A DNA stretch of 64,000 bases. It comes from Candidatus Altimarinota bacterium (GTDB lineage Bacteria; Patescibacteriota; Gracilibacteria; CAIRYL01). Position 1 is the stretch's first letter; every line of letters begins with the position of its first letter. A program made the position numbers and the translations under genes. Below the pieces are notes generated by a model that was not told the origin of the DNA, did not search any database, and saw only the letters and a list, made by a program, of their open reading frames with translations. Of the stretch, positions 15,561 through 63,431 are shown piece after piece. The stretch is taken from NCBI GenBank assembly GCA_965250085.1, contig OZ252287.1:64001-128000 (forward strand), in the 5' to 3' direction.

Positions 15561-17408
15561 ATGTCATTTGTTCACAAGAAAACTGCATCGGCAGTTGCCA
15601 AGACAAATCCTCTTATAGGGCTTCTTGTATTGAGCACGCTCCTTCTCATGGGAGGTTTGTACCTTTTCCTTGCTGGAAATGATAGCACTTTTTCACCAGT
15701 TCAAGCACAGAGTGGCACCTGCAGTTATGATGCAGTACTAGAAGTAGTAGGGGGAGGAGATCCTATGGATATAGAGAAAGGAGAGATGCTAGAATTTGTG
15801 TCCTCAATACAGAACGAGAGTTCTGATTGTAATGAGAGTGATCAAGGCAATAGCGAGACATATCGGAAGCTAGAAGTAGATGCCGATGGGAATGGAGAAT
15901 ATGAATACACAAGTGACTGGACATCATGTTCGAGTACCACCTGTAAGACAGACAGACATCCGCCAAGATTCACCTATAGCAAAGCAGGACAATATATAGC
16001 GAGAACAAGAATTACTTGGAGAGAAAACCCGAATGGGACAGTAATAGAAGAAGACACTGTTACCATAAACGTAAAAGCCCCACCAGTAATCATAGATCCT
16101 GCATGTAACCTGAATGATCCTGATGGAGCAGGAGACAAGTTTATTCTTGTAAACTTCCAGCCATTCTATCAAGGAGGGAAGAAGATATTTGGGAATTATG
16201 GACCTGCAGATGCAGTTATGGGACCTGTGGGAGTGAATGTTCCCTCAGGAGTGTATAAGATAGAAGCGACCTCATTTGATGACCATAGCCAACAGACGAG
16301 TGATAAAGTCACAAGCCAACAGAGAGAACAATGGGTACTGAGATTCCAGAATGGAGGAGGATCAGTGCTGGCCCAGACGAGAGCGACAAATGATGTACCG
16401 AACAACGCAGACCAGATAAGCCATGTACTGGAGACAGGTTTTGTGATACCAGCGAATGTAAGCAAAGTAGATGCGTATCATGCAGCCTATCCGGGAGCAT
16501 CTACACCAGAGAGTGTTGCACCGGTATGTGCTCTCCTGGAAAATGTGACACCACTGCCAACCTGTAATTTAACATCAACACCAAGTGTTATTAACGCTGG
16601 AGATTCAGCAACCCTCACTTGGACAACAACAAATGCAACTTCTGCTTCAATTGACCCAGGAGTTGGAGTTGTTACCCCCGTAGAAAGCGGTTCGGTCGTT
16701 GTTTCTCCTGTATCTACTATCACATACACTATGACAGTAGACGGGAGCGGAGGACAGAGTATGTGTACAACTACAGTAACAGTAGAAGATACACCACCAC
16801 CAACCTGTAATTTAACATCAACACCAAGTGTTATTAACGCTGGAGATTCAGCAACCCTCACTTGGACAACAACAAATGCAACTTCTGTTTCAATCGATCC
16901 AGGAGTTGGAGCTGTTACTCCTGTAGCTGGTGGCTCAGTCATTGTTTCTCCTTCATCTACTACCACCTATACTATGACAGTAGACGGGAGTGGAGGGCAG
17001 AAGAGTATGTGTACGACTACAGTAACAGTAGAAACTATTGTTCCAGCCAATTTTACCCTCGACAAATCAGCAGACAAGACAGTACTCATTCCTGGTGATA
17101 CCGTTGTTTACACCGTAATAGTAAAAAACACAGGAGGGACAGCTCAAACAGTTCGCCTGACAGATACCATGGCATCTGGCACTGCTGGAGGCAGTATGGG
17201 ACCTATATTTGATGAAAATATTAGTTTTGCTGGTGGGACTTGTACTCCTAGTGGAAGCCTTGCAGTTGATGGAATTGTTTTTCCTGACTTTCCCCCTGGA
17301 GGAGTGGCAACTGTAACGTACAAGCGAACGGTAGACGCCACTGGAGTTGTTTTTGATGCTCCATCTTCGTTTACAAACACTGCAAAACTCTATACATGTA
17401 CTGAATAA
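15561..17408 (+). CDS. Secreted Ig-like surface protein (PKD-like, tandem Ig-like repeats, truncated C-terminal DUF11 domain)
   Basis: N-terminal TM/signal; two 81-aa repeats; LDKSADK...GDTVVYTVIVKNTG...TNTAKL; no C-terminal anchor. Confidence 0.8.
   Translation: MSFVHKKTASAVAKTNPLIGLLVLSTLLLMGGLYLFLAGNDSTFSPVQAQSGTCSYDAVLEVVGGGDPMDIEKGEMLEFVSSIQNESSDCNESDQGNSETYRKLEVDADGNGEYEYTSDWTSCSSTTCKTDRHPPRFTYSKAGQYIARTRITWRENPNGTVIEEDTVTINVKAPPVIIDPACNLNDPDGAGDKFILVNFQPFYQGGKKIFGNYGPADAVMGPVGVNVPSGVYKIEATSFDDHSQQTSDKVTSQQREQWVLRFQNGGGSVLAQTRATNDVPNNADQISHVLETGFVIPANVSKVDAYHAAYPGASTPESVAPVCALLENVTPLPTCNLTSTPSVINAGDSATLTWTTTNATSASIDPGVGVVTPVESGSVVVSPVSTITYTMTVDGSGGQSMCTTTVTVEDTPPPTCNLTSTPSVINAGDSATLTWTTTNATSVSIDPGVGAVTPVAGGSVIVSPSSTTTYTMTVDGSGGQKSMCTTTVTVETIVPANFTLDKSADKTVLIPGDTVVYTVIVKNTGGTAQTVRLTDTMASGTAGGSMGPIFDENISFAGGTCTPSGSLAVDGIVFPDFPPGGVATVTYKRTVDATGVVFDAPSSFTNTAKLYTCTE
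16557..17033 (+). repeat. 243-bp intragenic tandem duplication
   Basis: Units start at 16557 and 16800 (PTCNLTSTPSVINAGDSATLTWTTTNATS...MCTTTVTVE). Confidence 0.9.
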
Positions 17409-17453
17409 TTTTTTGAATGTCTTTCTTCTTGAAACCTTTCATATATAAATACA

Positions 17454-20084
17454 ATGAAAAAAATAGCTTCTCCTAAGGGATTTTCCACTGTTTCACTCCT
17501 CATCATAGGATTGGTGATCCTTGGAATTATAGTCCTCCTTTTTGCAGGACTGGATAACATTCTGTTTCGAGGTGATATTACAGCACCGGACCCAGAGCCC
17601 ATAGGCCCCCCTCCTTCTGCTACGGTTCAATGTAGCACCTCATGTCAAAATCAACAGCTCGTTGCACAAGACACAGAGGTAGTAACTGTAAATGTCCCTC
17701 AGGGACCAGTATGTACTGGTGCGCGACCAGAAAGCCTCACGACTACCAACATGTCTGGAGAATTTATGGTGTTTGCCGATGGAGTACAGAATACGGACAG
17801 AGTATATTTTGCGGTCTTTTCTCTGGCAGATGAACAGGGAAGTGGCAGTAATACAGATGACAGACTTGTATACGAAGGAGAAGATCAGGGAAATGGAACA
17901 TGGAAAGCTACTATTTTGTTAGAAAACCATCCAACAACACCTGACAATCGTATCATTTTTGTACGAGCCTGGATGGACTATCCAGGAAATCAAAATGTAG
18001 AGTGTGGACGAGCAGATTTTGGAATAATCATTCTAGGAACGGGACCAACTTGTGTGCTCACCGCAAATCCGGCAACTATTAATGCTGGTGAAATAAGCAC
18101 ACTGAGCTGGGAAGTCTTCGGAAATGCAACTTCTGCAGTCATGAACCCAGATATTGGAACAATCGCTCTGCCAACCGGTTCTGCAGATGTATCTCCTACT
18201 GATACAACCAATTACACACTTACAGTCAGCAACGTCGACGGAAGTGGTTCTTGTTCAGTGCCAGTAACAGTTGGATCTCCACCAGGAGTTACTCTCTCTC
18301 TCACCAAAACGGTAGATCCTACATCTGCAAATCCTGGAGAAACACTGACCTATACCCTTGAATATAGTAATCAGGGTCCTGGAGACGCGACTGGTGTAAT
18401 CTTAGAAGATGATTTTGATGAGACAAAAATAACGAATATTGATGCTCCAGCAGAATGTTTGGAAGCTGGAGGAATCCTCACCTGTACTATTGGAGATCTT
18501 GCCAATGGAGAAACTGGTCAAATTGTCTATACAGCTGAAATTAAGTCAGATAATGCAATTTTCTTTGAAGGACCACCTGGTGGTGAATTTATTGACAATA
18601 CGGCAACACTTGATTCAGATCAGACAGATCCTATCTCTGACACGGCAAGGGTCACAGTACAGCCTGGCGGTTTGACTCTCGATAAGAGTGCTAACCCCGT
18701 GCGACTGGTGACCGGACAGCAGACAACCTATACCGTGGAAGTAATGAATCACTTTAATTCTTCACAGACCTTTACACTCCAAGATGTCCTTTCTAGTGGA
18801 AATAATGGTGGAACAATTACCATTAACGCCTCTAGCTATCAAGCAGTGTTTGATCCAATAAGTTCAGGAATATTTTCGGGAAATAATCCATTTACTATTA
18901 CGGATTTACAGCCTGGAGCAAAAGTAACGATCACATACACGGGAACTGCCAGTAACGCGGGAATTCCCGTTAATCAAGAATCGCTCTTTCCCAACACGGT
19001 TACCCTGGTAGAAACTGGTGAACAGGATAGTGCTGAAGTTGTAGTCATTGGACCCACACAAGGGACTCCACCAAGCACAGGTGGAGGCGGAGGCGGAGGC
19101 AGTAGAATCATTACAGCTGGTGTGGAATTGGACGTTATAAAAGAGGTACAAGACCGAGATGGACAATGGAAGGATGCAAATGAGATTGATTTCGCCGCAC
19201 TTGTTGCCAACACTCCTGAACAAGCAGTTCATTACCGAGTAAAGGTTACTAATTCTGGAAACATCAGCGGAGAAAATGTAGTGATCGAAGACGTATTTGA
19301 AAGTAGCACCTTAGAAAGACTTGAAATCGAAAATGTCAAAGGAGCTGAATATGATGATGAAGATGATACGTTCATGATTGATGAAATCAGATCGAATGAG
19401 ACCAAGACCATCACCTATGATATGAAACTTGAAAAAACTGGCTCATCTCAGCTTTCTGCCAGCGCGGTTAATACTGCAACCGTTACTGAAGCAGAAAACA
19501 GAAAAGGTCTACCTTTCCGTTATCGCCTCAAACCAGTAGAAGGAATAGGCGAAGATGATCCAGCGTATATTAAAACTGATGACAAAGCTCCTCCTCTAGA
19601 AAGGATTGATGTCAATCTCGACAAAAGTGTGAACAAAGCAGTCGTAAAACCAACCGAAGAAGTAGAATACACTATTCGCGTGAAAAATGTTTCTACCACT
19701 GATTTGCTGGATGTTGTGGTGACAGACCTTTTTCCCTTCAATTCTCTCGAATTTATATCCGCTAGTTCACGAGGAATTCAAAAGGATAATAAAATTGAAT
19801 ATAACAAGAGAATCCTGAGAATTGGAGAAGAATGGATCATTAAGGTCAAAGCAAAGGTTAAAGCAGGAGTACCAGCAGGAACTCATATTAGAAATATTGT
19901 GGCCATCAAAGCAAGTAATGCTGATCTCTCTGACAAACGAGATGAAACAGAAATTGAAACTATTGGTGGAACGACTCCAAAAAGGCTCCAAAGCACAGGA
20001 CCAGAAGAAATGGTAGCACTTATGCTCCTTGTTCTGGGATCACTGCTCTTTGTAACCGGAATACGCAAACGATACTGGTCATAA
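17454..20084 (+). CDS. DUF11 (isopeptide-type) multi-domain surface protein with a C-terminal sortase-like anchor
   Basis: Four DUF11-like domains (LTKT/LDKS...Y.....N...D...NT); N-terminus KGFSTVSLLII; C-terminus LQSTGP + TM + RKR. Confidence 0.85.
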   Translation: MKKIASPKGFSTVSLLIIGLVILGIIVLLFAGLDNILFRGDITAPDPEPIGPPPSATVQCSTSCQNQQLVAQDTEVVTVNVPQGPVCTGARPESLTTTNMSGEFMVFADGVQNTDRVYFAVFSLADEQGSGSNTDDRLVYEGEDQGNGTWKATILLENHPTTPDNRIIFVRAWMDYPGNQNVECGRADFGIIILGTGPTCVLTANPATINAGEISTLSWEVFGNATSAVMNPDIGTIALPTGSADVSPTDTTNYTLTVSNVDGSGSCSVPVTVGSPPGVTLSLTKTVDPTSANPGETLTYTLEYSNQGPGDATGVILEDDFDETKITNIDAPAECLEAGGILTCTIGDLANGETGQIVYTAEIKSDNAIFFEGPPGGEFIDNTATLDSDQTDPISDTARVTVQPGGLTLDKSANPVRLVTGQQTTYTVEVMNHFNSSQTFTLQDVLSSGNNGGTITINASSYQAVFDPISSGIFSGNNPFTITDLQPGAKVTITYTGTASNAGIPVNQESLFPNTVTLVETGEQDSAEVVVIGPTQGTPPSTGGGGGGGSRIITAGVELDVIKEVQDRDGQWKDANEIDFAALVANTPEQAVHYRVKVTNSGNISGENVVIEDVFESSTLERLEIENVKGAEYDDEDDTFMIDEIRSNETKTITYDMKLEKTGSSQLSASAVNTATVTEAENRKGLPFRYRLKPVEGIGEDDPAYIKTDDKAPPLERIDVNLDKSVNKAVVKPTEEVEYTIRVKNVSTTDLLDVVVTDLFPFNSLEFISASSRGIQKDNKIEYNKRILRIGEEWIIKVKAKVKAGVPAGTHIRNIVAIKASNADLSDKRDETEIETIGGTTPKRLQSTGPEEMVALMLLVLGSLLFVTGIRKRYWS

Positions 20085-42999: not shown

Positions 43000-44145
43000 C
43001 TACGGATTACGAATGCGAATTGTCGCAAGCGCTTGGCAGCGCATGCCTTCTCCTTTTCCAAAAGAAGAAAGTTTTTCACCAGTATGGACAGTGAGTCCGA
43101 TATTTTCTTCAGCAATATTTAACAGTTTCGCCAGACGCTTTCGTATTTTGGGAAGATGTGATTCCAGTTTTGGCTGAGATCCTTCAAAGGAGAGAGAAAT
43201 GTTTTGAATGCTTCCATTTTTCTCTTTCAATACGTTCAAAACTTCTTTGAGATACTCCGTTGAGTCAGTAATTCCTTGTGCGCACAAAAGGTCAGCGATG
43301 CGAGAAAAAGAAGTTCCTCCAACAGCAGAAAGCAATGCGTTGCACAGTGCATGCAACGCAACATCTCCATCAGAATTTGCTTCAAATCCAGGGCAATTTG
43401 GAATAACAACCCCACCAATCATGCATGTTTTTTGTTCTGAACTGAATTGATGACTGTCTTCTCCGAGTCCCATTCTGAGTTCAGAATCTCTGATGCACTC
43501 TAAAAATTTAAGATCTTCAAGGGTCGTGATTTTTCTATTTTTCCAACTTACTGGAACAATCTTTGGAAGAATACCTTGGACTTCTGCTAATGCTACATCA
43601 TCAGTTGGTATTTTATTCTTCTCCTTCCAAATCTCAAATCCTTTTGTGCAAATATTTGCCTTGAGAGCTTGAGGGGTTTCCATTTTGTACAAAGAATTTC
43701 TCTCGATCACTTCTGATTTTTTTTCACTCATTCTTCGAACAGTAGAAGTTATTTTCTTTCCCACTCCCGCTACACCATTTTGTTGGGCCTTTTTGATCAC
43801 TTCTAGAATTTCCGACGCTGTAATTCCTGGATTGGCAGCGTTATGAAAAAGAATAATGTCATTCTTACTGGATCCAATAGCTGTAAATCCATGGAGTGCA
43901 CTCTCAAATCGTGTTTTCCCTCCCAGAATTATTTTGTGAATTTTTGAAAAGTTCTTTGCGATGACTTCACACTCATCTTTGTTTTCTTTTGAAGCAACGA
44001 GCACTATCTGATCAATTGTATCGTGGTCTTCAAAAGCTCTGAGGCTCCAAAAAAGAACAGGTTTTCCCCAAAGATTGAGAAAAATTTTCTCTTCTCCAAA
44101 CCTCTCGGATCTGCCAGCAGCGAGTACAATAGCAATATTCATCAA
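43000..44145 (-). CDS. ispDF: Bifunctional IspD/IspF
   Basis: LAAGRSERFG..K, HNAANP, ETPQ, TDD, KITT..DL, followed by GEDSHQF, SDGDVALHA, GKGEG. Confidence 0.92.
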   Translation of the reverse strand: MMNIAIVLAAGRSERFGEEKIFLNLWGKPVLFWSLRAFEDHDTIDQIVLVASKENKDECEVIAKNFSKIHKIILGGKTRFESALHGFTAIGSSKNDIILFHNAANPGITASEILEVIKKAQQNGVAGVGKKITSTVRRMSEKKSEVIERNSLYKMETPQALKANICTKGFEIWKEKNKIPTDDVALAEVQGILPKIVPVSWKNRKITTLEDLKFLECIRDSELRMGLGEDSHQFSSEQKTCMIGGVVIPNCPGFEANSDGDVALHALCNALLSAVGGTSFSRIADLLCAQGITDSTEYLKEVLNVLKEKNGSIQNISLSFEGSQPKLESHLPKIRKRLAKLLNIAEENIGLTVHTGEKLSSFGKGEGMRCQALATIRIRNP

Positions 44146-44591: not shown

Positions 44592-46102
44592 TTAAGCATC
44601 TAATTTTTCAAACGCCTTCTCAAATCGCTGAATAATGTCATCCGGATCCTCAAGCCCTACAGAAAGCCGCAGCATATACGGCGAAATACCTTGTGTCTCT
44701 TCTATCTCTTCAGACGAGAATGCAGAAAATTGATAGTAAGGAGTGAGCATGCTCCAGTTCGTCCCAAAATTTGGACCCTTTGCAATCTCTATAGTATCGT
44801 AAAACGCAGGGGTATTCCCCCGAGGATGACAGAGGAGGAATGAGAGTACTCTTTTTTGTACCGTATCTTTTCTAGATTTTGTATGGAATGTGGGGATATG
44901 CACTCGGTATACCAGGGGATGATTTTCTAAAAATGCATATATTTTTTCTGCGCTTGCATCGATCTGTTGTATTCGTTTGAGAAAAGTCCTTGAGTTTTCT
45001 TCGAGAACTGTCGCATCTTCATACCAGAGCAGATCTTCAAAATTGTGATGAAAGACACGTGCCAACACGTTTAAGAACCGACTTTTGGAACGCATCATTA
45101 ATGCCCCTCCAGTAACATTCCCTTCTCCAGAGAAAAACTTTGAAAGCCCAGAAATGATAACATCTGCAAAAGAAAATGCATTTCGATTTTGAAAAGTTCC
45201 CAGAGTGTCATCGACAATAATGGGAACATTATGTTTTCGAGAGAGCACTTCAAGTCTTTGAAGATTTACTTTTTGTAAAAGCGGATTTCCAGGAACTTCA
45301 AAAAAGATGCCTAACATTTTTTCTTTGGCAAGGAGTTCTTCAATTTTTTCCAAGTCACTTTCATCTCCTTGTTCAAAAAAATAAACACCATTTCCAAATT
45401 CCCTTTGCATTTGCAGGGTGTAATTGGTCGCAAATCCAATGTGAATACTTTTTCGTTCTGGAAATGATATTTGCAGAAACCGATGAATGGTAAAAGTGCT
45501 GACATTCCAGTAGGGAAGAGAACGATGTTTTGAGCCGGTTCTCCAGAAATTTCTGATATACGTGCTTGGAGTAGCTTCTTTGCTTTTCGACCCTCTTCAC
45601 GAGCTTGATCACTGAGAGGTTCTTTATTGAGTGTGCTCTGGGCAAGTCGTGATGAGATTATCTCTCGGGTATACCACCAATATTTTTCTGCTTCTTGTAA
45701 GTACTCTTTTGGAAAACAAACGGCAAAGACATTGTTTTTTCTCATATCGTGAAGAGAAGACTTCTGTTCCAGTTTTTCCTTGAGAAACTCTTGAAATCTT
45801 ATTGCGACCTTTTCAGAAGGGAACACCATGCATTCTTCTTTTTTCTTGGCAAATCGCTTTTTTGCTTCAGCAAATAGCTTTTGTACCGCCGGTTGAAAAC
45901 CATATCCAGGAAAATTATTTTTCAGTTTTTTGATGAGTTTTGGGTCTTTTTGCTTATAGGCAATTACATCTTTCCATGTCGGCAAACACACCGATACCGC
46001 ATGCGGGTCATCAGGAAGAGGGACTCCCAAATCTGACGCTTTGCAGGGTGGAGTGCTGAAAAAAGAATGAGAATAAGGATCCATACCAAAAATCATATGC
46101 AC
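44592..46102 (-). pseudogene. PLP-dependent cystathionine gamma-synthase-like enzyme with a frameshift near 45495
   Basis: N-half HAVSVCLPTW..V..Y...FPTGMSA; C-half EVPGNPLL, VDDT, LSKFFSG, KGPNFG, LRLSVGLE. One extra T in CTTTTACC joins the frames. Confidence 0.8.
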
Positions 46103-49525: not shown

Positions 49526-50235
49526 GGCTCTAGAGTAGGAGATTTTAAAAATCTCTGATAATTTTGGACATTATAACAAAAATATCTTGATCTTTATAGT
49601 TCCATCGCCACTCACATTCTTTGAGGTGAAAGTTAAACTTGTGAGAAGCAATTCCGTTAAACTTAGAGAGTCTTCTTTTCGCAAAAGACCAAAAGGATTC
49701 AATACCATTTACATGACATTTTCCTCGTGCAAATTCATTTTCTGAGTGATGAATACGATAGTGATCATATCCATTGAGAATGAGTCCATCATAAGCTCTC
49801 CATCCATCAGTATGAATAGTTGATCCTTCTAGTATTTTTCCTTGAATAATAGGTAGGAGCTCTTTTCTGGAGCAATCTTTTACAATAGAAACAAATACCC
49901 TTCCTTCTCTTTGAAGGATTCCAAAGACAGGAGTCTTTCCTGCGGCTCCTCTTCCTCTCTTTCCTCTCATTCTCTTTGCTCCAAAGTAACTTTCATCAAG
50001 TTCAAATTCTCCAAAACTCTTTGACTGTGCTAAAGAGAACTTTGCAATCTTTTCTCTAAAAATATTAAAATATCGATCAACCGTTCTCCGATTGAGATCT
50101 AGAATATTTGCTGTTTTTGATGCATTGAGATCTTCACAAAAACACTTCAATATTTTTTTGATCTTATAATTCGATATTTTACTGTGTTTAAGCATGTTAA
50201 GAGAATAATTGAAGTAATTATTCTACTCAAGAGCC
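49526..50235 (-). mobile_element. IS1595-family (IS1016-like) insertion sequence, 710 bp
   Basis: TIRs GGCTCTAGAGTAGGA / TTCTACTCAAGAGCC (13/15 match); 8-bp TSD TAAGACTT at 49518-49525 and 50236-50243. Confidence 0.93.
49545..50195 (-). CDS. IS1595 family DDE transposase
   Basis: ELDESYFG, RGRGAAGK, HTDGW, HVNGIESFWS. Confidence 0.95.
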   Translation of the reverse strand: MLKHSKISNYKIKKILKCFCEDLNASKTANILDLNRRTVDRYFNIFREKIAKFSLAQSKSFGEFELDESYFGAKRMRGKRGRGAAGKTPVFGILQREGRVFVSIVKDCSRKELLPIIQGKILEGSTIHTDGWRAYDGLILNGYDHYRIHHSENEFARGKCHVNGIESFWSFAKRRLSKFNGIASHKFNFHLKECEWRWNYKDQDIFVIMSKIIRDF

Positions 50236-51087
50236 TAAGACTTTTATCTTGTAACGTTCTGAGATGTGGATAAACACTCGTTTGATGAGGAATAGAAAGT
50301 GCTTCTGCAATTTCTTCCACTGTGCAGGGAGATTCAAAAATGAGAAAAAGAATTTTTTTGCTTCTAGTGTTCACACTCAAAACCGCTTGCTCTACGCTAT
50401 CGCGATCTGGCTGTATGCTTTCGTTGGAAACATCTGACAGAACTGGGAGATCGGGATCTTCTTCCAGGAGCTCTTTTAAGGTCGATCGAAAATGCTCATT
50501 GAGATAGTTCACAAAGCTTCTGCCTTCTCGGCGTCTGAAAATGAGGTTTTTGTTTTCTAGTCCAAGGATGTGCTGATAGACACCTGGTGGAGAGACAGAT
50601 ACCTGCTCTACAAGCTCCTTCATCGTCCGCGGAGCATTAAAAATCAAACGGAGTATTTCTTTTTTGGTATCCCTCATTTTCATCACCAATTGAGTTACGT
50701 GTTCACATCCGGCTTCGTCGCTACTCCTTCTTTCGATTTCTTCATGTTCCGGTGGAGCAGAGAAGGCAGAAGACAAAATCACTGATATTTCGGGCATTGG
50801 GGATGTTTAAATTTTTATTAACATGGTAATTAAAATCATTTTTAGCTCACTTGTCAAGACATTGCTCTTTATTTCAAAACATTTTCCTGTATCAATTACA
50901 ACAACAGCAGCGTTTATGAGAATGAAAAACCAAAAAACAAAACCATTGATGTATTTGGAGCGTGGAGATCAAAAGACAGAAAACCTGGAATTCGTTTTCT
51001 TCATGTCTTTTTGAGAAAATATTCCCGAAATCACCAAAATCCCGTATTCTTTCCTCATAAGCTATAATTCTAAACAATATAAATAAC

Positions 51088-53924: not shown

Positions 53925-54467
53925 ATGAAAAAATCATCTCATCTCCATCGAAAAAGAAATCGTTTACAGGGATACGATTATTCACAAAATGGATATTATT
54001 TTGTCACTACATGCACGAAAGGTCGCGTGCAATGGTTTGGTGAAATAAAAGATGATGAAATGCAATTGAGTCGATTTGGACAAATCGCCAAGAAACAATG
54101 GATGTGGCTACAAGATCAATATGATTCTGTGACATTGGATTCATTTGTAATTATGCCAAATCATGTACATGGAATTATCGTCATTGAAAATCAAGGTCAT
54201 GGTAGGGACAACTCTAGAGTTGTCCCTACGCGAGCTGTTCGTGATATGCCTACAGGTCGTCATAATCTCTTATCCAAAACCATAAACGCTTTCAAAACCA
54301 CATCATCAAAATTGATTCGTCAAAATGGTTGCCCTGAATTTATCTGGCAACGGTCGTTTCACGATCATATCATCCGAGATGAAACCGGACTCAATACTAT
54401 TCGTGAATACATCGAGTTTAATCCTTTGAAATGGACTCTAGACAAAGAAAATCCAGAGAATTTTTAA
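53925..54467 (+). CDS. REP-associated tyrosine transposase (RAYT/TnpA-REP)
   Basis: RLQGYDYSQNGYYFVT, MPNHVH (HUH), WQRSFHDHIIR, YIEFNP..W. Confidence 0.92.
   Translation: MKKSSHLHRKRNRLQGYDYSQNGYYFVTTCTKGRVQWFGEIKDDEMQLSRFGQIAKKQWMWLQDQYDSVTLDSFVIMPNHVHGIIVIENQGHGRDNSRVVPTRAVRDMPTGRHNLLSKTINAFKTTSSKLIRQNGCPEFIWQRSFHDHIIRDETGLNTIREYIEFNPLKWTLDKENPENF
54202..54229. repeat. 28-bp perfect GTAG REP-like palindrome inside the RAYT gene
   Basis: GTAGGGACAACTCT|AGAGTTGTCCCTAC; encodes GRDNSRVVPT. Confidence 0.85.
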
Positions 54468-55113: not shown

Positions 55114-56817
55114 CTATTTTTTTCCAAACTTTCTTCCTCCGCCACCAGTTGCTTTTTTCATCTCCACCGGTGTCCCCCAGAATTTTTGACGCTTGAAGCA
55201 ACTCAGGAGTGCTGATGCGTATCGTTCATCTGCATCAAATGCAGTAGAACTCTTTCCTACGCTGATCTTGCCGATCTCCACACCGCGAAGTTTGGATTGT
55301 TTGTTGATGAGCATAAAAAGATTCTTGGCATTAAAGCCTTTTTCAGAGCCAAAATTAATTTCAAAATGAGCAAAGTTTACATCCTGATTTCTGCGTCCTC
55401 CACCATCTCTTCTTTTGCCACCCCGATCTCGATGGCGATCTTGACTCTTCCCGCGCCCGTGTGATTTATATCCACCACCGCCACCGCGTAACTCCACATT
55501 GAGATCCGGTGCATTTTTGTACATTTCCAAAAAGCGATGAAACTCGATAGAAACCATGTGTTCTATGAGTTCTTCGCGACTGAGGGATTCGAGTTTTTTG
55601 TAGACCATTGGGAGAAAAGGAGCGATGCGCGCTTCATCCACTTTGCTCTTGCCCACTTTATCAATCAGGTGCAAAAGTTGCATTTCACAAATCTCTTTTC
55701 CGGTGGGAACCTTGACTTGCTGGAAGGGCCGGCCGATCTTTCGTTCCAATTGATGAATCTTGCCCACTTCTTTCATATGGATGATGGTGAGGGCAATTCC
55801 TTTTTTATTGGCCCGACCGGTACGTCCACTGCGGTGCAGATAGGATTCCAGCTGATCAGGGAGATTGTAGTTGATGACATGGGTGAGATCATTCACATCG
55901 ATTCCACGAGCGGCTACGTCGGTGGCGACAAGGATCTGAATCTGCTTTCTACGAAAGCGATTCATGACGTGTTCTCTTTGTTTTTGTTCAATGTCACCAT
56001 GGAGGGCATCGGCAGAGTAGTGATCACCCATGAGCTTGGTGGCGACCTCTTGGGTCTCACGACGTGTCCGGCAAAAGACGATGCCGTAAATATCAGGTGT
56101 CATATCGGCGATTCTTCGAAGGGCTTCATAGCGATCTTTTGCGTGCACCATGTAGTATTTGTGCTCCACATTTTCAGTACCAGTATTCCGTTTGCTCGCA
56201 CTTATTTGCTGGGTATCTCGCATATATTTTTTGGCAATCTGCTCCACGCTTGGGAGCATGGTGGCAGAAAAGAGCAGAGTTTGTTTCTTCTTTGGAGTCG
56301 TTCCCAAAATGGCATCCAGATCTTCTTTGAATCCCATATTGAGCATCTCATCGGCTTCATCAAGTACTAAGTATTGGATAGATTCGATGTTGAGTTTTTT
56401 CTTTCGGATGAAGTCATGCACGCGTCCAGGAGTTCCTACCACGATTTGACATCCTTTTTTGAGCGCCCTGAGCTGAATATCCATTCGCTCACCACCATAG
56501 ACCGGTACTATTGAGATATCAGGAAGATGCTTGGAAAACGCTTTGATGTCCTTAGTAATTTGTAAGCACAACTCACGAGTAGGACAGAGAATGATGGACT
56601 GTACATGTCTTGCCTGAGGATCAATTTGCTCCAAGATCGGCAGACTAAACGCTGCGGTCTTTCCGGTCCCTGTTTGTGCAAGAGCTATCAAGTCCTTTTG
56701 TGAAGAAAGGAGATAGGGGATTGTTTTTTCTTGAATTGTGGTAGGCGTTTCAAATTCAAGCTCTTCAAGAGCCAAGAGTATTTCCGAACGAAGCCCAATT
56801 GTTTTGAATGCGGTCAT
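55114..56817 (-). CDS. deaD: DEAD-box RNA helicase with a C-terminal DbpA-type RNA-binding domain
   Basis: AQTGTGKT, PTREL, DEAD, SAT, ARGID, HRSGRTGR. Confidence 0.93.
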   Translation of the reverse strand: MTAFKTIGLRSEILLALEELEFETPTTIQEKTIPYLLSSQKDLIALAQTGTGKTAAFSLPILEQIDPQARHVQSIILCPTRELCLQITKDIKAFSKHLPDISIVPVYGGERMDIQLRALKKGCQIVVGTPGRVHDFIRKKKLNIESIQYLVLDEADEMLNMGFKEDLDAILGTTPKKKQTLLFSATMLPSVEQIAKKYMRDTQQISASKRNTGTENVEHKYYMVHAKDRYEALRRIADMTPDIYGIVFCRTRRETQEVATKLMGDHYSADALHGDIEQKQREHVMNRFRRKQIQILVATDVAARGIDVNDLTHVINYNLPDQLESYLHRSGRTGRANKKGIALTIIHMKEVGKIHQLERKIGRPFQQVKVPTGKEICEMQLLHLIDKVGKSKVDEARIAPFLPMVYKKLESLSREELIEHMVSIEFHRFLEMYKNAPDLNVELRGGGGGYKSHGRGKSQDRHRDRGGKRRDGGGRRNQDVNFAHFEINFGSEKGFNAKNLFMLINKQSKLRGVEIGKISVGKSSTAFDADERYASALLSCFKRQKFWGTPVEMKKATGGGGRKFGKK

Positions 56818-57110: not shown

Positions 57111-58847
57111 ATGAATCAAGAGAGTGCTTTGCAAATACTTAAATCGGGGAAAAATGTGTTTTTGACGGGTTCAGCTGGAGCAGGGAAGACGTATTTACTC
57201 AATCAATATATTGAATATCTGCGTGATCGTGGAGTTCCTCTCGCGATCACGGCTTCTACGGGTATTGCGGCTACGCATTTGGATGGGCAGACCATTCACT
57301 CATGGTCAGGGCTGGGGATCAAAGACGTACTTACGGATGCAGATCTCCAAAAAATTGCAAAGAAAAAACCACTGCGCAACAGACTTGAGAAAGTACAAGT
57401 CCTTGTTATTGACGAAATCTCGATGCTCTCAGGCCAAACACTCAGCTGTATTGACCAGATTTTGAGGTATTTCAAGACAAGTTTTAAACCGTTTGGGGGT
57501 ATTCAGGTGGTTTTCTCTGGAGACTTTTTTCAACTCCCCCCCGTTTCAAAAGAGCGCCTCAGCTCCCATGAAAAATTTGCTTTTATGGCTCCCATTTGGG
57601 TCAAAGCAGAATTACAAATCTGCTATCTGACGGATTCTTATCGTCACCAAAAAAATGCTTTGCTCGAACTCCTGAATGAAATCCGCAGTGGAGAAATAAG
57701 TGAAGCAAGCGCAGATATGCTCCAAGAAAAGCTCGTGTCTGCGCATGAAAACACAACAGAATCAGCTCTCAAACTCTTTACCCACAATGCGGATGTCGAC
57801 AAAATCAATAAAGTGCATCTGGCAAAACTGGACTCTGATGTTCAGCGTTTTACTGCAAAAACTATGGGAAATCGAAATTTGGTAGAAGCGCTTAAAAAAT
57901 CAACTCTTGCTCCCACAGATCTAGATCTCAAACAATATGCGCAGGTTATTTTTGTAAAAAACAATTATGAAATGGGATATCTCAATGGAACAATGGGAAC
58001 CGTCACTGATTTTGATGATGAGGGGTGGCCAATTGTGGAAACATTCTCAGGTGCTACTCTTGTGGCAAAACCCGTAGAATGGAGTATTGTCGATGAATCT
58101 AATATCGCTGTAGCGTCTTTTTCTCAAGTTCCTTTACGTCTAGCGTGGGCGATCACGGTACACAAGAGCCAGGGAATGACGCTTGATAGTGCCGAGATAG
58201 ACCTTTCTAAGACGTTCGAACAGGGGCAAGGATACGTGGCACTCTCGAGAGTAAAGACATGGGCAGATCTTACTTTGCTGGGATGTAACCAAAAAGCTTT
58301 GCAAATGGATCCTCTGGTGATGGTTGCGGACAAGCGATTTCAAGAACTCTCTTCTCATATTGATTCTGAGTTTCAGCAGAGCGATGCAAAAAAACTCCAA
58401 AAGAGTTTTGATGATTTTATTGAGCGCTCAGGAGGAACTTTGGATACGAAACTCATTGCTCAGAACCATAAGCGCAATGCACTCCCTCGAACAGTCGCCC
58501 CCAAGGCGCCCAAAGTTTCTACATATGAACAAACAAGGGTTTTGATTGTAGAAGGAAAAAATCTAGAGCAAATTGCTACGGCGCGGAATGTGACAACAAA
58601 CACTATTGTCTCCCATTTGGAAAAACTCAAATCTGAAAATTCTGACCTGGATATCACGCGATTTAAACCGGATACAAAGCTTTTGGATATCGTTATCGCA
58701 GCGATACAAAAATGCAAAAAAAACTCAATCGCAAAAGACTTTGATCAAGATGGACATCTCAAACTGGGATTGATCCACCGAGAGCTCAAAGGGAAGGTTG
58801 GGTATGATACAATCAGACTCTGTAGAGTGTTTGCGAAAAAGAGTTGA
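57111..58847 (+). CDS. PIF1-family SF1B helicase with a C-terminal HTH
   Basis: TGSAGAGKT, ASTGIAA, DEISM, GDFFQLPPV, LAWAITVHKSQGMTL, YVALSR; C-terminal IATARNVT.NTI..HL. Confidence 0.92.
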   Translation: MNQESALQILKSGKNVFLTGSAGAGKTYLLNQYIEYLRDRGVPLAITASTGIAATHLDGQTIHSWSGLGIKDVLTDADLQKIAKKKPLRNRLEKVQVLVIDEISMLSGQTLSCIDQILRYFKTSFKPFGGIQVVFSGDFFQLPPVSKERLSSHEKFAFMAPIWVKAELQICYLTDSYRHQKNALLELLNEIRSGEISEASADMLQEKLVSAHENTTESALKLFTHNADVDKINKVHLAKLDSDVQRFTAKTMGNRNLVEALKKSTLAPTDLDLKQYAQVIFVKNNYEMGYLNGTMGTVTDFDDEGWPIVETFSGATLVAKPVEWSIVDESNIAVASFSQVPLRLAWAITVHKSQGMTLDSAEIDLSKTFEQGQGYVALSRVKTWADLTLLGCNQKALQMDPLVMVADKRFQELSSHIDSEFQQSDAKKLQKSFDDFIERSGGTLDTKLIAQNHKRNALPRTVAPKAPKVSTYEQTRVLIVEGKNLEQIATARNVTTNTIVSHLEKLKSENSDLDITRFKPDTKLLDIVIAAIQKCKKNSIAKDFDQDGHLKLGLIHRELKGKVGYDTIRLCRVFAKKS

Positions 58848-58857
58848 AGTAGATTTA

Positions 58858-58958
58858 CAAATCCAAGCTCTTCAAGAGCCAAGAGTATTTCCGAACGAAG
58901 TCCAATTGTTTTGAATGCGGTCATGAAGAAAGAATGATCTAAAAGAATGGCGATTCAG
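58858..58958. repeat. 101-bp direct repeat, copy 2 (orphan deaD 5' fragment)
   Basis: Minus strand encodes MTAFKTIGLRSEILLALEELGF, then diverges. Confidence 0.93.
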
Positions 58959-59093
58959 AGGAGTGCGGTATGGAGAGCAATACAACGCAGGAATATATTC
59001 CAAAACAATTTTTTCGAGAAATATTGACGTAATAAAAAGAATATACTACGCTACAATCTAATTTTATGCGTTCTCATTTCATGCATTCTTTGT

Positions 59094-60560
59094 ATGTCCG
59101 AAAAAAGTCCATTAGTTCACACATCCAGCCGTACTCAACATCCAGAAATAGTTATCGCGGCTCATCCTGGAGCGATGACCTCTTTGGGAAATACTCAGGA
59201 CACGGAAAAAGGACTCCTGGAGGGGAGAAGTGGTATACGTGAGTTTGACCCAACCGAAATTGCCAACATGCAACTTCAAGCTCAGGTTGCGGGTATGGAG
59301 GAGCAGACACTACTAGAAATAGCATGGAAATCAGGAGTAGGAGCTCTTGTTTCTCCTGAAGATGAAAATCTTTTTGAATATCCAAAATCCCTTCAACCTC
59401 CCAGAGGATCAAAACCAGCTCGGGCAGGGCGTTCTATTCGCTATGCTTATGCCGCTGCCAGGCAAGCATTGGCGATACTTCCGCCAGAATTATTTGATCC
59501 CGAAGGATATATTCATCCAGAGTATCAAGACAACACTATGATAGATGTGGGGATGGGAGCAGGAGTAGATATTGAAAACCTAGAGGGTGCGTATCTAGAG
59601 CTTCTAACCGGTGCTGATAAAGGAAAAGTACAAGGAAGATATGCAATTCCCACTTTTATGACAGGCACACTTGCAAACCTCGCCGCGGGACATATTGCAA
59701 ATGAATTTGGAATACGAGGAGGGACACAATCAACAAATGCAGCATGCGCTTCTTCGGGGCATGCTATGAAAAATTTGCACAATTCTCTTCTCACAGGTGA
59801 GGCTCAGATAGGAGTGGTCGTTGGCTCTGATGCAGCAGCAAGAACTGTGACAGGTGTCGTTTCCTTCGATTCTCTTATGGGCCCCCGAAGACAGGGGGCG
59901 CTTTCTCGGAATTGGAGAGACCATGGTGGCGCCACAAAAGCTCTTCGAGCCTTTGATGAGAGCAGAGATGGTTTTGTCCCAGGAGATGGAGCAGCAGCAT
60001 TTGTCATGATGAAACGTGAGCTTGCAGATACAGTACCGGTAGAATACCAAGCAATTGTACGTTCGATCGTACGAAACACTTGTAACCCACAGAGAGATGG
60101 AGGATCTCTCACGGGAGGGACTATTCAGGGACAAACAAATTGCCTTCGTCAGGCAGTAGAACAAGCTCGGCTTTCCGCTACGAACTTTACAGGGAGGCTC
60201 AATTTTATAGTTCATGGCACAGGGACACAGTTGGGGGCTGAAAATGAAATAGCGGGAATACGAGAAAATTTTGCAGACTTTCTAAATGATGAAAAGATAA
60301 TAATCACAGGAAACAAAGAGCAACTTGGGCACACACTCGGAGGAGCATTTGCCCTCAACGTGTTTCAAGCACTCATGGCAATGAAGAAGGAGCAGTGCTC
60401 AGGGCTTCCGGCTACAAGAAATATTGATCCAAAGTTTGTAGATGTTGCACAGGCAATTGCTCAGCAGAGTTTTTGTGTCTCAGGCGAAGATATGTATGGA
60501 GTAGCCGCTTATGGTTTTGGAGGTGTAAACGCTGTAGCAATCCTCGAACCAGCTCACTAG
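59094..60560 (+). CDS. FabF/FabB-like beta-ketoacyl synthase
   Basis: AACASS (Cys), RAFDESRDGFV.GDG, VHGTGT, KEQLGHTLGG, GFGGVNA; promoter-like TTGACG-17-TACGCT at 59024. Confidence 0.88.
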   Translation: MSEKSPLVHTSSRTQHPEIVIAAHPGAMTSLGNTQDTEKGLLEGRSGIREFDPTEIANMQLQAQVAGMEEQTLLEIAWKSGVGALVSPEDENLFEYPKSLQPPRGSKPARAGRSIRYAYAAARQALAILPPELFDPEGYIHPEYQDNTMIDVGMGAGVDIENLEGAYLELLTGADKGKVQGRYAIPTFMTGTLANLAAGHIANEFGIRGGTQSTNAACASSGHAMKNLHNSLLTGEAQIGVVVGSDAAARTVTGVVSFDSLMGPRRQGALSRNWRDHGGATKALRAFDESRDGFVPGDGAAAFVMMKRELADTVPVEYQAIVRSIVRNTCNPQRDGGSLTGGTIQGQTNCLRQAVEQARLSATNFTGRLNFIVHGTGTQLGAENEIAGIRENFADFLNDEKIIITGNKEQLGHTLGGAFALNVFQALMAMKKEQCSGLPATRNIDPKFVDVAQAIAQQSFCVSGEDMYGVAAYGFGGVNAVAILEPAH

Positions 60561-60590
60561 AGATATTTCTTTTTTAAAAATCATCGCATA

Positions 60591-62141
60591 GTGCAGTCGA
60601 CAGAAAAATCAGCAGCAGAAACAGTACCTTCAGAGCTCGAACAGGCTCGAAATCTCCCAACGGATAAATTTTTGCAAAGATATAGGAATGTTTTGAGTGA
60701 TGTGTTTCAGGCTGGCGAACCTGATATTCATAACACATTCCTTTCAGCAGAAAATTGGAAAAAACTTGTGCAAGCCGGTGCACTTTTGCCAGCTATTGCT
60801 CAAGAAAGAGGAGGAAGAGCCGATAGCACATTAGAATTTCTGAGTATTCATACAGAAGCTTCCAGATACTCTTTGCCACTGAGCCTTTATCTCGGAATTG
60901 TAAATGCCTTGTTTTTAAGGAATCTGAGGAAATATGGAAGTGGAGAGACTCAAGATGAAATTTTTCCAAAGTTTCACCAAGGGGCTACTGGTGGCCTTGC
61001 AGTGAGTGAGCCGGGATATGGTACTGAAGCTTTTAATATGCAAACTTCGTATAGAGAGATTCCAAAAGGAGGATATCGTATTTCAGGGGAAAAACACTGG
61101 CAGGGATTGAGTGGTTCAGCAGATTATTGGCTTGTGGCGGCAAGAGAAAAAGATAAAAACGGAGACTTGTCACGACACCCCGACCTCTTTTTTTGTAGAG
61201 AAGGGCTTAGATTAGAAAGGAACTATGAAACAAGTGGCCTCAAAATGATCCCCTATGGGAGAAGTGCGATAGATGTGGTCACACGAGAAACACGGAGAGC
61301 TCTTCCAGATTCTACAAAAATTGCAATGTGGCAAGACATCTTCCTATCGAGTAGAGTCGGATTTCCGGCAATGACGCTTGGTTTTTTGGAGCAAAACTTT
61401 GATAAAGCACAAGAGCATTGCTCCCGAAGACCTATGGGGAACGATCATTTGATTAATTTTGATCAGGTTCAAAGTCGTTTGGCGAAAATGCAAGCATACG
61501 AAACAATTTGTAGAGCAATGGTCTCTCATACCGCAAAAAATATAAAATTAGATGATGTTTTAGACCAAGGAAACAGATTTGAAGTCGCAAAACAATCGAT
61601 CAGAGCAAATGCTCATAAAGCACTCATTACTGAATATATGGCTGAATCCGCAAGGCACGGAAGAATTTTGCAGGGCGGAATGGGATTTGAAACAAGTAAT
61701 TATTTTTCCAGAGCCATGGAAGACAGTTGGCCATTTCAGATATTTGAAGGCCCAAATGATACTCTGTACTCCCAAATTTCTACCTCACTTGCAACCCTGA
61801 TAAAAACAAGAAAACACGAAAGTGTTGCTGATCTTTTGAAAAATTTTGATCTCACAAAAGAAGTCGCTGGTAAATTTACCAAACTTTTTGACTTCACATT
61901 TGACAGAAAAAGAACTCCTCAACGAAAGCTGGTGCTCCTCGGTCAAGCTATGGCAAGGATAATTGCTTTTCAATACTTAGAAGAAATGGGGTCACTAGAT
62001 CCCAAACAACAACCATATGTTCACAATGCACAAATGCTTTTGTACATGGAAATAGAGGAAATTCTCGGAAATTATAAAAGCGAAAAATTTCTGGAGACCG
62101 TCGAAGGAGTTCGTGAGCAATGGCAAAATATTTTTCTCTAA
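60591..62141 (+). CDS. Acyl-CoA dehydrogenase family protein
   Basis: GGLAVSEPGYGTEA, GEKHWQG, QGGMGF, QIFEGPN (catalytic Glu). Confidence 0.88.
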   Translation: MQSTEKSAAETVPSELEQARNLPTDKFLQRYRNVLSDVFQAGEPDIHNTFLSAENWKKLVQAGALLPAIAQERGGRADSTLEFLSIHTEASRYSLPLSLYLGIVNALFLRNLRKYGSGETQDEIFPKFHQGATGGLAVSEPGYGTEAFNMQTSYREIPKGGYRISGEKHWQGLSGSADYWLVAAREKDKNGDLSRHPDLFFCREGLRLERNYETSGLKMIPYGRSAIDVVTRETRRALPDSTKIAMWQDIFLSSRVGFPAMTLGFLEQNFDKAQEHCSRRPMGNDHLINFDQVQSRLAKMQAYETICRAMVSHTAKNIKLDDVLDQGNRFEVAKQSIRANAHKALITEYMAESARHGRILQGGMGFETSNYFSRAMEDSWPFQIFEGPNDTLYSQISTSLATLIKTRKHESVADLLKNFDLTKEVAGKFTKLFDFTFDRKRTPQRKLVLLGQAMARIIAFQYLEEMGSLDPKQQPYVHNAQMLLYMEIEEILGNYKSEKFLETVEGVREQWQNIFL

Positions 62142-62172
62142 AAAAAAGCAGAGAACTCTGTGCAGAGCTATT

Positions 62173-62577
62173 TTATTCTGTCACCACAAACGAGCCAACC
62201 ATCCCCAGTTCGCGATGTGAACCGATACTGCAATAAAACTCATATGTTTTTCCGGCACTGTCTGTAGGTACTTCAAATTCGAGAATTTCTTCTTCTCCTG
62301 CCCGGAGTCGAGAACTTTCCACTCCCAGTTCATCGAGATCAAAATCATGAGTTCCTTCTACATTGACCAACTTGATGCGAATGGTCGATCCTGCTTTGGC
62401 TTCGATAATATTGGGTTCGTAATAAAAGTTTCCCAGCTCCAGAGTGTAGTCAACTCCTCCTTCTTCTTGCTGAGCATCTGTGGAGAGGTCTTTCACTCCT
62501 TGTTCTTGAGGAGTCTGTGACACATGCGAACATCCGGCTAAAAAAAGGGACAAGAGAAAAATTTTGAGTGATTTCAT
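62173..62577 (-). CDS. Cupredoxin (type 1 copper) lipoprotein
   Basis: Lipobox LAGC; His (GTHDF) plus C-SIGS-H-RELG-M copper ligands; ATG 62577. Confidence 0.85.
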   Translation of the reverse strand: MKSLKIFLLSLFLAGCSHVSQTPQEQGVKDLSTDAQQEEGGVDYTLELGNFYYEPNIIEAKAGSTIRIKLVNVEGTHDFDLDELGVESSRLRAGEEEILEFEVPTDSAGKTYEFYCSIGSHRELGMVGSFVVTE

Positions 62578-62735
62578 ATTGAGAGTAAAAAAATAAGTAC
62601 AAAAATTGTATTGTTTTTCTATAGAAAAAAGCAAATAAAGAAAAAAATACTAAAAACTGAAAGCGAGGAATTGAATCTTTTTTACGAAAATAGTTTTTTC
62701 TTTGCTACAATACACATGATTTTTTCTCAAAGAGT

Positions 62736-63431
62736 ATGTACACCCTTGTTGTCGTTCGTCATGGAGAGAGCACATGGAATAAGCTCAATCAATTTACCGG
62801 ATGGACAGATGTGCCGTTAAGTGAAAAAGGAGTGAAGGAAGCGAAAACTGGCGGAAGACTTCTTCAAGAAAAAGGATTTGAGTTTGATTTTTGCTACACT
62901 TCATATCTCAAGAGAGCCGTTCATACATTAGATTTGATTTTGGATGAGATGGATCTCAGTTGGCTCCCTGTAGAAAAAACATGGAGGCTCAATGAAAGAT
63001 GCTATGGAGCGCTACAAGGACTCAATAAGGCAGAGATGGCAGAGAAGCACGGGAAAGAGCAGGTGCACATTTGGCGAAGGAGCTATGCCACTCCTCCTCC
63101 TGCGCTGACCGAAGATGACGAGAGATATCCAGGGAATGATAGGCGCTACGCGGATCTTTCCAAAGATCAAGTTCCATTTACAGAAAGTCTTGCAGACACC
63201 GTTGAGAGAATGCTCCCATTTATTGAAAACACTCTTTTTCCAATAATTCGATCTGGAAAGAGAGTTCTTGTTTCTGCTCATGGAAACAGCCTTCGGGCAC
63301 TTGTGAAGTACTTGGAGAATATTTCTGACACAGATATTCCGGGGGTAGAAATTCCTACAGGTATTCCCCTTGTCTATGAATTGCACAAGAATCTTGAGCC
63401 AATCAATAAATACTATTTGAAAGAAGAATAA
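62736..63431 (+). CDS. gpmA: 2,3-BPG-dependent phosphoglycerate mutase
   Basis: VRHGES.WN, FTGW.DV, LNERCYG.LQG, AHGNSLR. Confidence 0.97.

Follow-up and report, generated by a model that had tools for sequence, protein, structure and literature searches.

Bacteria of the candidate phyla radiation (CPR) from the group considered here are presumed symbionts that lack fatty-acid synthesis and take their lipids from hosts (PMC4736985). In Peribacteria, which also lack fatty-acid synthesis, only fabG has been identified, the mevalonate pathway is used, and a ketosynthase is not mentioned in the accessible text of the report (PMC4736985). A Parcubacterium with acyl-CoA dehydrogenases and a complete β-oxidation set has been described as unexpected for the radiation, with the dehydrogenase genes co-located with those for enoyl-CoA hydratases, a hydroxyacyl-CoA dehydrogenase, thiolases, an acyl-CoA synthetase and electron transfer flavoprotein (ETF) (PMC5220378). 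For the condensing enzyme FabF, catalytic, gating and acyl carrier protein (ACP) docking roles have been assigned to individual residues (PMC7138838). Here we describe two neighbouring genes in a 64,000-nucleotide stretch (the window) of contig OZ252287.1, a one-contig genome of 1,368,807 bp (completeness 97.14%, contamination 0.45%) from a Candidatus Altimarinota bacterium. They encode a stand-alone FabF-like β-ketoacyl synthase (ketosynthase, KS; 59094..60560, + strand) and an acyl-CoA dehydrogenase (ACAD; 60591..62141, + strand) that resembles the very-long-chain type of acyl-CoA dehydrogenase (VLCAD). An original prediction made from the DNA letters had presented them as a metabolic pair behind a promoter. 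Its observations hold except for the promoter, and the most interesting result is a small KS clade that appears to have lost the carrier protein.

Catalytic residues and carrier docking in the ketosynthase clade

The KS gene is an open reading frame (ORF) of 488 codons with an ATG start, whose product matches PF00109 (1e-21) and PF02801 (1.2e-11) above the Pfam cut-offs. Its best NCBIfam match is the fabF model TIGR03150, with 131.4 bits against a cut-off of 493.75, and it lies far under every equivalog cut-off. The motifs AACASS, VHGTGT and LGHTLG align to Cys163, His303 and His340 of FabF, which bears out the full Cys-His-His triad read earlier from the sequence, and the divergence from FabF that had been noted agrees with the score, with several insertions and with some 15 extra residues at the N-terminus. 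The predicted structure (pLDDT 88.6, pTM 0.92; pLDDT below 50 at residues 1-13) has FabF and FabB as its best PDB matches, with TM-scores of 0.88-0.92 normalised on the target.

For residues of catalysis and docking, 12 rows of the clade, of which 11 are distinct, were aligned to 15 FabF proteins (that of E. coli and 14 more), and the columns were read by the roles given in PMC7138838. Cys163, His303, Thr305, Thr307, Lys335, His340 and Asn404, together with the GFGG gate (Gly399-Phe400-Gly401-Gly402), are kept in 12/12 clade rows and 15/15 FabF rows. Since the catalytic columns are invariant in a clade with an overall identity of 28-37%, purifying selection is implied. The ACP-docking positions behave differently. 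Arg206 is replaced by Gly in all 12 clade rows, whereas all 15 FabF rows have Arg or Lys. Position 128 (Lys in FabF) is basic in none of the clade rows against 15/15, position 127 (Arg) in one against 13/15, and positions 68 (Arg) and 69 (Lys) each in one against 15/15, while Lys65 is retained as Lys in 4/12 against 14/15. Thr270, which contacts ACP, is kept in one clade row and 14 FabF rows, and Asp265 of loop 2 in two and 15, respectively. In the present KS, Asp265 is replaced by Asn, the positions of Lys65, Arg68 and Lys69 hold Ser, Ala and Arg, and those of Arg127, Lys128 and Arg206 a gap, a gap and Gly. According to PMC7138838, Asp265 was found in all KSs compared except actKS, and the docking set of FabF also includes a hydrophobic patch at residues 129-132.

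Partner enzymes were sought by six-frame searches of the whole genome, with bacterial control genomes giving matches for each family. The genome contains a single KS and a single ACAD, which are the two neighbouring genes. Genome-wide, there was no match to the carrier PP-binding domain (PF00550), phosphopantetheinyl transferase (PPTase, PF01648), FabD-type acyltransferase (PF00698), FabA/FabZ (PF07977), AMP-binding ligases (PF00501), thiolase (PF00108), HMG-CoA synthase (PF01154), HMG-CoA reductase (PF00368), the acetyl-CoA carboxylase (ACC) carboxyltransferase (PF01039), ETF (PF01012), PlsC-type acyltransferase (PF01553), crotonase-type hydratase (PF00378) or CoaE (PF01121). In a 97%-complete one-contig genome, these zero counts support the earlier description of both proteins as orphan enzymes and exclude an ordinary type II fatty-acid synthase (FAS II) or β-oxidation set. 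The statement that the window itself holds no ACP, FabD, FabZ or β-oxidation gene was also confirmed, as none of the 56 other ORFs scanned matched such a family at E ≤ 1e-5; 3HCDH_N (PF02737), searched for in the window rather than genome-wide, gave only a weak secondary match on an alanine-dehydrogenase-type protein. Apart from the usual housekeeping functions, the window encodes an IspDF fusion, a GNAT acetyltransferase and genes for dTDP-rhamnose, and it holds no lipid gene. GNAT enzymes of the window use acetyl-CoA, which indicates that the cell uses CoA. The PP-binding domain was absent from all ten KS-bearing genomes tested, six of which are 97-99% complete (completeness is unknown for the other four), and a search of five of the KS-bearing genomes for an ACC carboxyltransferase gave no match.

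Because the docking surface is lost, the catalytic machinery is kept and the genomes are without a carrier protein, we infer that the KS most likely acts on free thioesters without a carrier. The clade retains in full the machinery of decarboxylative Claisen condensation, with a Cys to accept the acyl group, a His-His pair plus Lys to handle the malonyl thioester, Thr305/Thr307 and the GFGG/Phe400 gate, and it has lost the basic and hydrophobic surface on which FabF docks ACP. The enzyme would then condense acyl-CoA or acyl-pantetheine with malonyl-CoA to yield a 3-ketoacyl thioester. The substrates would be imported by the cell, since neither ACC nor CoaE was matched in the genome.

The KS clade is small. 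A word-indexed search of 5.8 billion clusters returned a single relative, 36% identical and derived from a Peregrinibacteria metagenome-assembled genome (MAG), followed by FabF proteins at about 27%. When 1.84 billion representatives were searched exhaustively with a profile, about eight further clusters came up, including three fragments, ahead of the multi-KS polyketide synthases that filled the rest of the list. In total, the clade comprises about nine clusters in this set of 1.84 billion, and almost all of them stem from Peregrinibacteria/Peribacteria MAGs, with the source names of two clusters pointing to Pacebacteria/Paceibacterota and Omnitrophica MAGs. A locus search over 185,579 species genomes (one genome per species), using a profile of seven full-length members, found nine KS loci, eight with a Peregrinibacteria/Peribacteria label and one with a Paceibacterota label, plus a weak match in Chloroflexota at 27% identity. 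These relatives are in keeping with the early label of the genome as CPR-like. When 401 genomes of the window's class were searched with the KS profile and the ACAD query, strong KS matches were obtained in seven, namely the present genome and six of the 64 genomes in family f3, but in none of 11 genomes of its own family and none of eight in the rest of its order. In a phylogenetic tree, the clade (13 rows) was monophyletic with an SH-aLRT support of 98 and separate from a set of 31 FabF-like rows that contained both E. coli FabF and the other Patescibacteria KSs. Thus, the present enzyme does not group as an ordinary FabF; it forms one of the basal branches of the clade, outside the cluster of Peribacteria sequences. 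Literature searches, supplements aside, found no published description of this clade.

The sole KS neighbour common to relatives is a DbpA-type DEAD-box RNA helicase identified by Pfam (55114..56817, - strand). Three relatives (L094, L108 and L111) have a homologue of it in the same divergent position upstream of the KS as the present genome, which suggests an old common ancestry of the KS with many losses; an old transfer could also account for the pattern. Between the DEAD-box gene and the KS lies a PIF1-like helicase, also assigned by Pfam (57111..58847, + strand). A PIF1-like gene occurs near the KS in locus L116, and the ortholog of the present one in the same-family genome G522 (67% identity) has no KS, ACAD, DEAD-box, cupredoxin or GpmA gene nearby. 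An insertion island was sought by synteny with genomes of the same order, and the flanks were not syntenic even in the closest relative, G522. The neighbours at the KS-clade loci are a ZIP transporter, PBP, AlaRS, GreA, SmpB and helicases, with no lipid gene.

Several features of the relatives concern the KS directly. In three Peribacteria loci, a small Cys-rich ORF of about 147 codons with many CxxC-like spacings lies directly upstream of the KS and co-oriented with it (L094:9443-9892, L108:9454-9897 and L111:9607-9879, all + strand). The L094 and L108 products are 60% identical over their full length, and the C-terminal region of about 80 residues in L111 is 74-84% identical to that of the other two. 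A role as a regulator that binds zinc, or as a partner of the KS, is conceivable for this protein. Pfam gives no match for it, and the present genome, for which it was therefore rejected as a hidden carrier, encodes no homologue. Two longer relatives of the clade, P0208 (868 aa) and the product of G639:C12:20956-21972 (an open frame of 1066 aa, L124), carry about 430 extra N-terminal residues without a Pfam match. P0208 is matched by the KS profile in two stretches, and its extra half may be a degenerate second KS that resembles a chain-length factor.

A role of the KS as a thiolase substitute in the mevalonate pathway was also considered and rejected. The present genome has no match to HMG-CoA synthase or reductase and encodes an IspD-IspF fusion of the methylerythritol phosphate (MEP) route (window 43000-44145, - strand), and the KS-bearing Peregrinibacteria genome G777 has a thiolase/HMG-CoA synthase-like/HMG-CoA reductase cluster of its own (contig C6, ~78,200-83,000). 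Members of one class thus appear, from their gene content, to use different isoprenoid routes.

The acyl-CoA dehydrogenase and the distribution of the pair

The second gene is an ORF of 516 codons with a GTG start. Its product contains the N-terminal, middle and C-terminal ACAD domains of Pfam above their cut-offs (4.4e-8 to 2.3e-16), and its best NCBIfam score of 72.8 bits (cut-off 600) places it far under all equivalogs. VLCAD is the best sequence match, and the segment FQIFEGPND aligns to FRIFEGTND/FRIFEGAND of VLCAD, so that the IFEGPN motif recognised earlier does correspond to the catalytic-Glu motif. The Glu of FEGxND, which we take to be the catalytic base of VLCAD, is invariant in 22/22 rows of the ACAD subfamily. 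The predicted model (pLDDT 85.6) has ACAD9 and VLCAD as its best full-length matches, including the C-terminal helical extension (TM-scores of 0.71-0.75 on the query), and it matches short ACADs over the core.

About 73 proteins of approximately 500 residues match the ACAD at 33-41% identity, with named relatives from Sphingobacterium, Olivibacter, Aequorivita, Gelidibacter, Taibaiella and Oceanispirochaeta. A single-sequence scan of genome contigs gave no match, and an alignment profile was needed, which revealed at least 592 related loci, mostly from Bacteroidota, Balneolota and Rhodothermota. The subfamily has no characterised NCBIfam member and only generic names in the Atlas, and its neighbours in Bacteroidota are heterogeneous (FUSC-like, peptidase M20, Sir2, GDSL lipase, DEAD helicase, ThiF and others) and give no functional hint. 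Among the 401 class genomes, it occurs in the present genome and in G481 (37% identity), where the gene lies between PNPOx-like and NUDIX genes behind ribonucleotide reductase; ordinary ACADs gave weak matches in one genome (G486). The two class members are sisters (SH-aLRT 99) inside a Bacteroidota-dominated subfamily tree, and the lineage was most likely acquired once, long ago, from a Bacteroidota-type donor. This ACAD has no published description in Peregrinibacteria that literature searches, supplements aside, could find.

By these features, the ACAD would be a VLCAD-like, probably dimeric flavoenzyme with an intact catalytic Glu. It most likely abstracts the α-proton of a long acyl thioester to give a 2-enoyl product. 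ETF was matched neither in the present genome nor in G481, and the electrons would for this reason pass to O2 or another acceptor.

Two observations were made on the ACAD homologues in other phyla. In Balneolaceae and other Bacteroidota, contigs frequently end 180-470 bp upstream of the homologue (L003, L010, L016, L025, L027, L034, L043, L047, L049, L060, L061, L066, L073, L079 and L082), and in complete Balneola genomes the 3-4 kb upstream contain no long ORF, a pattern which would fit a repeat, for example an rRNA operon, next to the gene. A DEAD-box helicase adjoins the homologue in two Bacteroidota loci (L021:9680-10972 and L064:6749-7873, both + strand); its presence by the ACAD there and by the KS in Peregrinibacteria is probably a coincidence.

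The functional KS-ACAD pair proposed for this locus was not recovered elsewhere. No ACAD was found near any of the nine KS-family loci (within up to 10 kb on each side), and no KS near any of the 80 ACAD loci examined out of at least 592 (within up to 8 kb). Of the two enzymes, G481 encodes the ACAD alone and G777 (the genome of locus L094) the KS alone, four further KS-bearing genomes have no ACAD domain, and the present genome is the only one of the 401 class genomes with both. A lack of co-occurrence in relatives had been named beforehand as the refuting outcome, and no co-occurrence was found. The two genes are therefore not a conserved two-enzyme module and should not be annotated as one, and their adjacency is either an accident of gene order confined to one genome or a recruitment on a very local scale. 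Co-folding of KS residues 14-488 with ACAD residues 10-516, run without controls, returned a score of 0.00 and no answer, which counts neither way.

Gene layout and competing explanations

The KS and ACAD genes are co-oriented with both frames intact, and the 30-bp distance reported for them is exact (spacer 60561..60590, + strand). A scan of the region found no terminator-like site on the + strand between them, and no Shine-Dalgarno-like run precedes the GTG start of the ACAD in the spacer. Judged from this layout, the two genes are probably carried on one transcript. The promoter did not survive the analysis. The letters TTGACG-17-TACGCT are present (59024..59052, + strand; TTGACG at 59024-59029 and TACGCT at 59047-59052, 17 nucleotides apart), but TACGCT matches only three of the six positions of the TATAAT consensus, and a promoter scan of positions 58700-62800 did not report this site and found three sites in total, compared with 6.9 ± 2.7 in shuffled sequences. 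Since the -10 match is poor and the scan yields fewer sites than shuffles, the element is no better than chance. A recent horizontal import of either gene was rejected on composition: the z-scores of GC content at third codon positions against the genome are -0.22 (KS) and -0.43 (ACAD), and the codon-usage distances fall at the 69th and 77th percentiles, respectively, of the long ORFs of the genome.

The explanation that we favour, with about even confidence, is that two accessory genes with separate inheritance have come to lie side by side in this genome alone, of which one encodes a carrier-independent condensing enzyme and the other a VLCAD-like dehydrogenase of acyl thioesters. The suggestion that the enzymes act on scavenged thioesters is tenable for each of them alone; a working pair is not supported, given that they do not co-occur elsewhere. 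Several points count against this explanation. The malonyl-CoA proposed as the extender has no known source, as ACC, a malonate-activating ligase and CoaE were all unmatched. A carrier-free ketosynthase of the FabF/FabB fold could not be documented here, although no search was aimed at such enzymes in general. The clade is gapped around FabF residues 127-132, where the alignment register is uncertain, and it has Lys or Arg aligned to FabF 130-132 that could form another docking patch. A very divergent carrier could escape PF00550, and the four KS-bearing genomes of unknown completeness bear on this count as well. For the ACAD, the assignment to long-chain acyl-CoA draws on the likeness to VLCAD and nothing else, since the subfamily has neither a characterised member nor informative neighbours, and the branches of the present and G481 sequences are long (1.27 and 1.24), so that attraction is possible. 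Finally, the 30-bp spacing and the lack of a terminator would equally fit a functional coupling in this one genome.

This last point leads to the first alternative, in which both genes were recruited into one operon in this genome and jointly remodel scavenged acyl thioesters, with the KS adding two carbons and the ACAD adding or removing a 2,3 double bond. The shared strand, short gap and uninterrupted layout agree with it, as does the fact that both families act on acyl thioesters and that each protein is the sole member of its family in the genome; the fit of both genes to the codon usage of the genome shows that the layout is not a fresh insertion. However, the pair does not co-occur in relatives or in the other genomes searched, the 3-ketoacyl product of the KS is no substrate for the ACAD, the FabA/FabZ and crotonase steps that would link them were not found, and no PlsC-type acyltransferase was matched that could pass a remodelled chain into lipid. 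We consider this alternative unlikely, though worth keeping in view. The same tentative standing belongs to the boldest form of the idea, in which a KS clade without ACP would elongate host-derived free CoA- or pantetheine-bound chains and be wired here to a VLCAD-like flavoenzyme as a two-gene lipid-tailoring operon. If ACP-free elongation and the two-gene operon were both true, they would offer a first handle on the adjustment of membrane acyl chains in CPR bacteria without fatty-acid synthesis.

It is less probable still that the KS, the ACAD or both have no function and merely remain from lost pathways or from an old transfer, with frames that chance or weak selection has kept open. None of the canonical partners was found in the genome, both genes are patchy (KS in 7/401 and ACAD in 2/401 class genomes) and both sit on long branches, all of which would fit such remnants. 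Yet the frames of 488 and 516 codons are intact, the KS clade has retained every catalytic residue while diverging to 28-37% identity, the structure models are confident (pLDDT 88.6 and 85.6), and 3 kb of dead sequence would hardly be expected to persist in a small CPR genome.

A core of a small secondary-metabolite pathway, comparable to PigJ and PigA of prodigiosin or to the EpxF-type ACAD of epoxyketones, is very improbable. The PigJ and PigA models do appear in the NCBIfam lists of the KS and ACAD, and PigA, AnaB, ColB1 and EpxF are among the structural matches of the ACAD. Their scores are 71.9 against a cut-off of 900 for PigJ and 61.8 against 500 for PigA, and general ACADs and VLCAD match the ACAD better. 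Such a pathway would depend on three partners that were not found in the genome (a carrier, a PPTase and an adenylating enzyme), and no typical tailoring, transport or regulatory gene lies within 10 kb. The earlier proposal of a secondary-metabolite system thus finds no support in the gene content of window and genome, in which neither an acyltransferase nor a tailoring gene was found either.

The weakest proposal, to which we give slightly less credence again, is that both proteins are exported effectors diverting host lipid metabolism through host ACP or CoA pools: it would account for the partners not encoded and would suit a group presumed to be symbiotic and without fatty-acid synthesis (PMC4736985), but both N-termini are hydrophilic with no hydrophobic or signal-peptide-like stretch, the first core strand of the KS model is already made by residues 19-22, no secretion gene adjoins, and the docking residues that the clade has lost should have been retained in a KS directed at host ACP.

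The window has several further features of note. A small cupredoxin-domain protein with a lipoprotein-like N-terminus is encoded convergently to the ACAD (62173-62634, - strand); it has a Cys-x4-His-x4-Met arrangement near the C-terminus, as in type-1 copper sites, and one would not expect such a genome to encode a blue-copper protein. Two traces of mobile elements are found 4.6-9.5 kb upstream of the KS: an IS1595-family transposase overlapping a double winged helix-turn-helix (ArsR/MarR-like) gene (49545-50797, - strand), and a short IS200/Y1-transposase-like ORF that matches the C-terminal part of the profile only (53925-54467, + strand). Two large adjoining DUF11-repeat proteins of 615 and 876 residues (15561-20084, + strand) are probably located at the cell surface. 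In the stretch 44592-46102 (- strand), a 272-codon ORF matches positions 122-381 only of the Cys/Met pyridoxal phosphate (PLP) enzyme profile and is overlapped upstream by a 263-codon ORF without a match; it may be a split or truncated gene.

Comparison with known systems

Prodigiosin biosynthesis likewise combines KS-fold and ACAD-fold enzymes in one pathway, as PigJ and PigA both serve MBC synthesis. PigA, however, acts on a prolyl-S-carrier protein, and the carrier, PPTase and adenylating enzyme on which that pathway depends were not found here. The Parcubacterium is a described case from the radiation itself, and its ACADs are encoded within a complete β-oxidation set (PMC5220378), whereas the present genome has no match for an acyl-CoA ligase, thiolase, ETF or crotonase-type hydratase.

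For the ACAD, the closest characterised enzymes are VLCAD and ACAD9, with which it shares the three ACAD domains, the C-terminal helical extension and the Glu of the FEGxND motif. It differs from them in sequence (17-18% identity in structural alignments) and in length, with 516 residues against chains of 587-656 and a shorter extension. It also belongs to an uncharacterised subfamily of about 500 residues that is typical of Bacteroidota, in a genome in which no ETF was found.

For the KS, the closest enzyme is FabF (KAS II; E. coli FabF, PDB 2GFW and 6OKG; TIGR03150), and beyond the clade no sequences come nearer than those of FabF proteins, with about 27% identity. FabF works in FAS II, whereas the KS is encoded in a genome without a match to ACP, FabD, FabZ or PPTase. 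The KS differs further in its score (131 against 493.75 bits), separate clade, insertions and N-terminal extension, and in lacking the docking residues Arg206, Arg127/Lys128 and Arg68, the loop-2 Asp265 and Thr270. The two enzymes nevertheless share the fold, the Cys-His-His triad, Lys335, Thr305/Thr307, the GFGG gate with Phe400, and Asn404. Beside FabF, the clade may represent either an unrecognised free-thioester mode of KAS I/II-type enzymes or a pointer to a carrier that is missed by current profiles.

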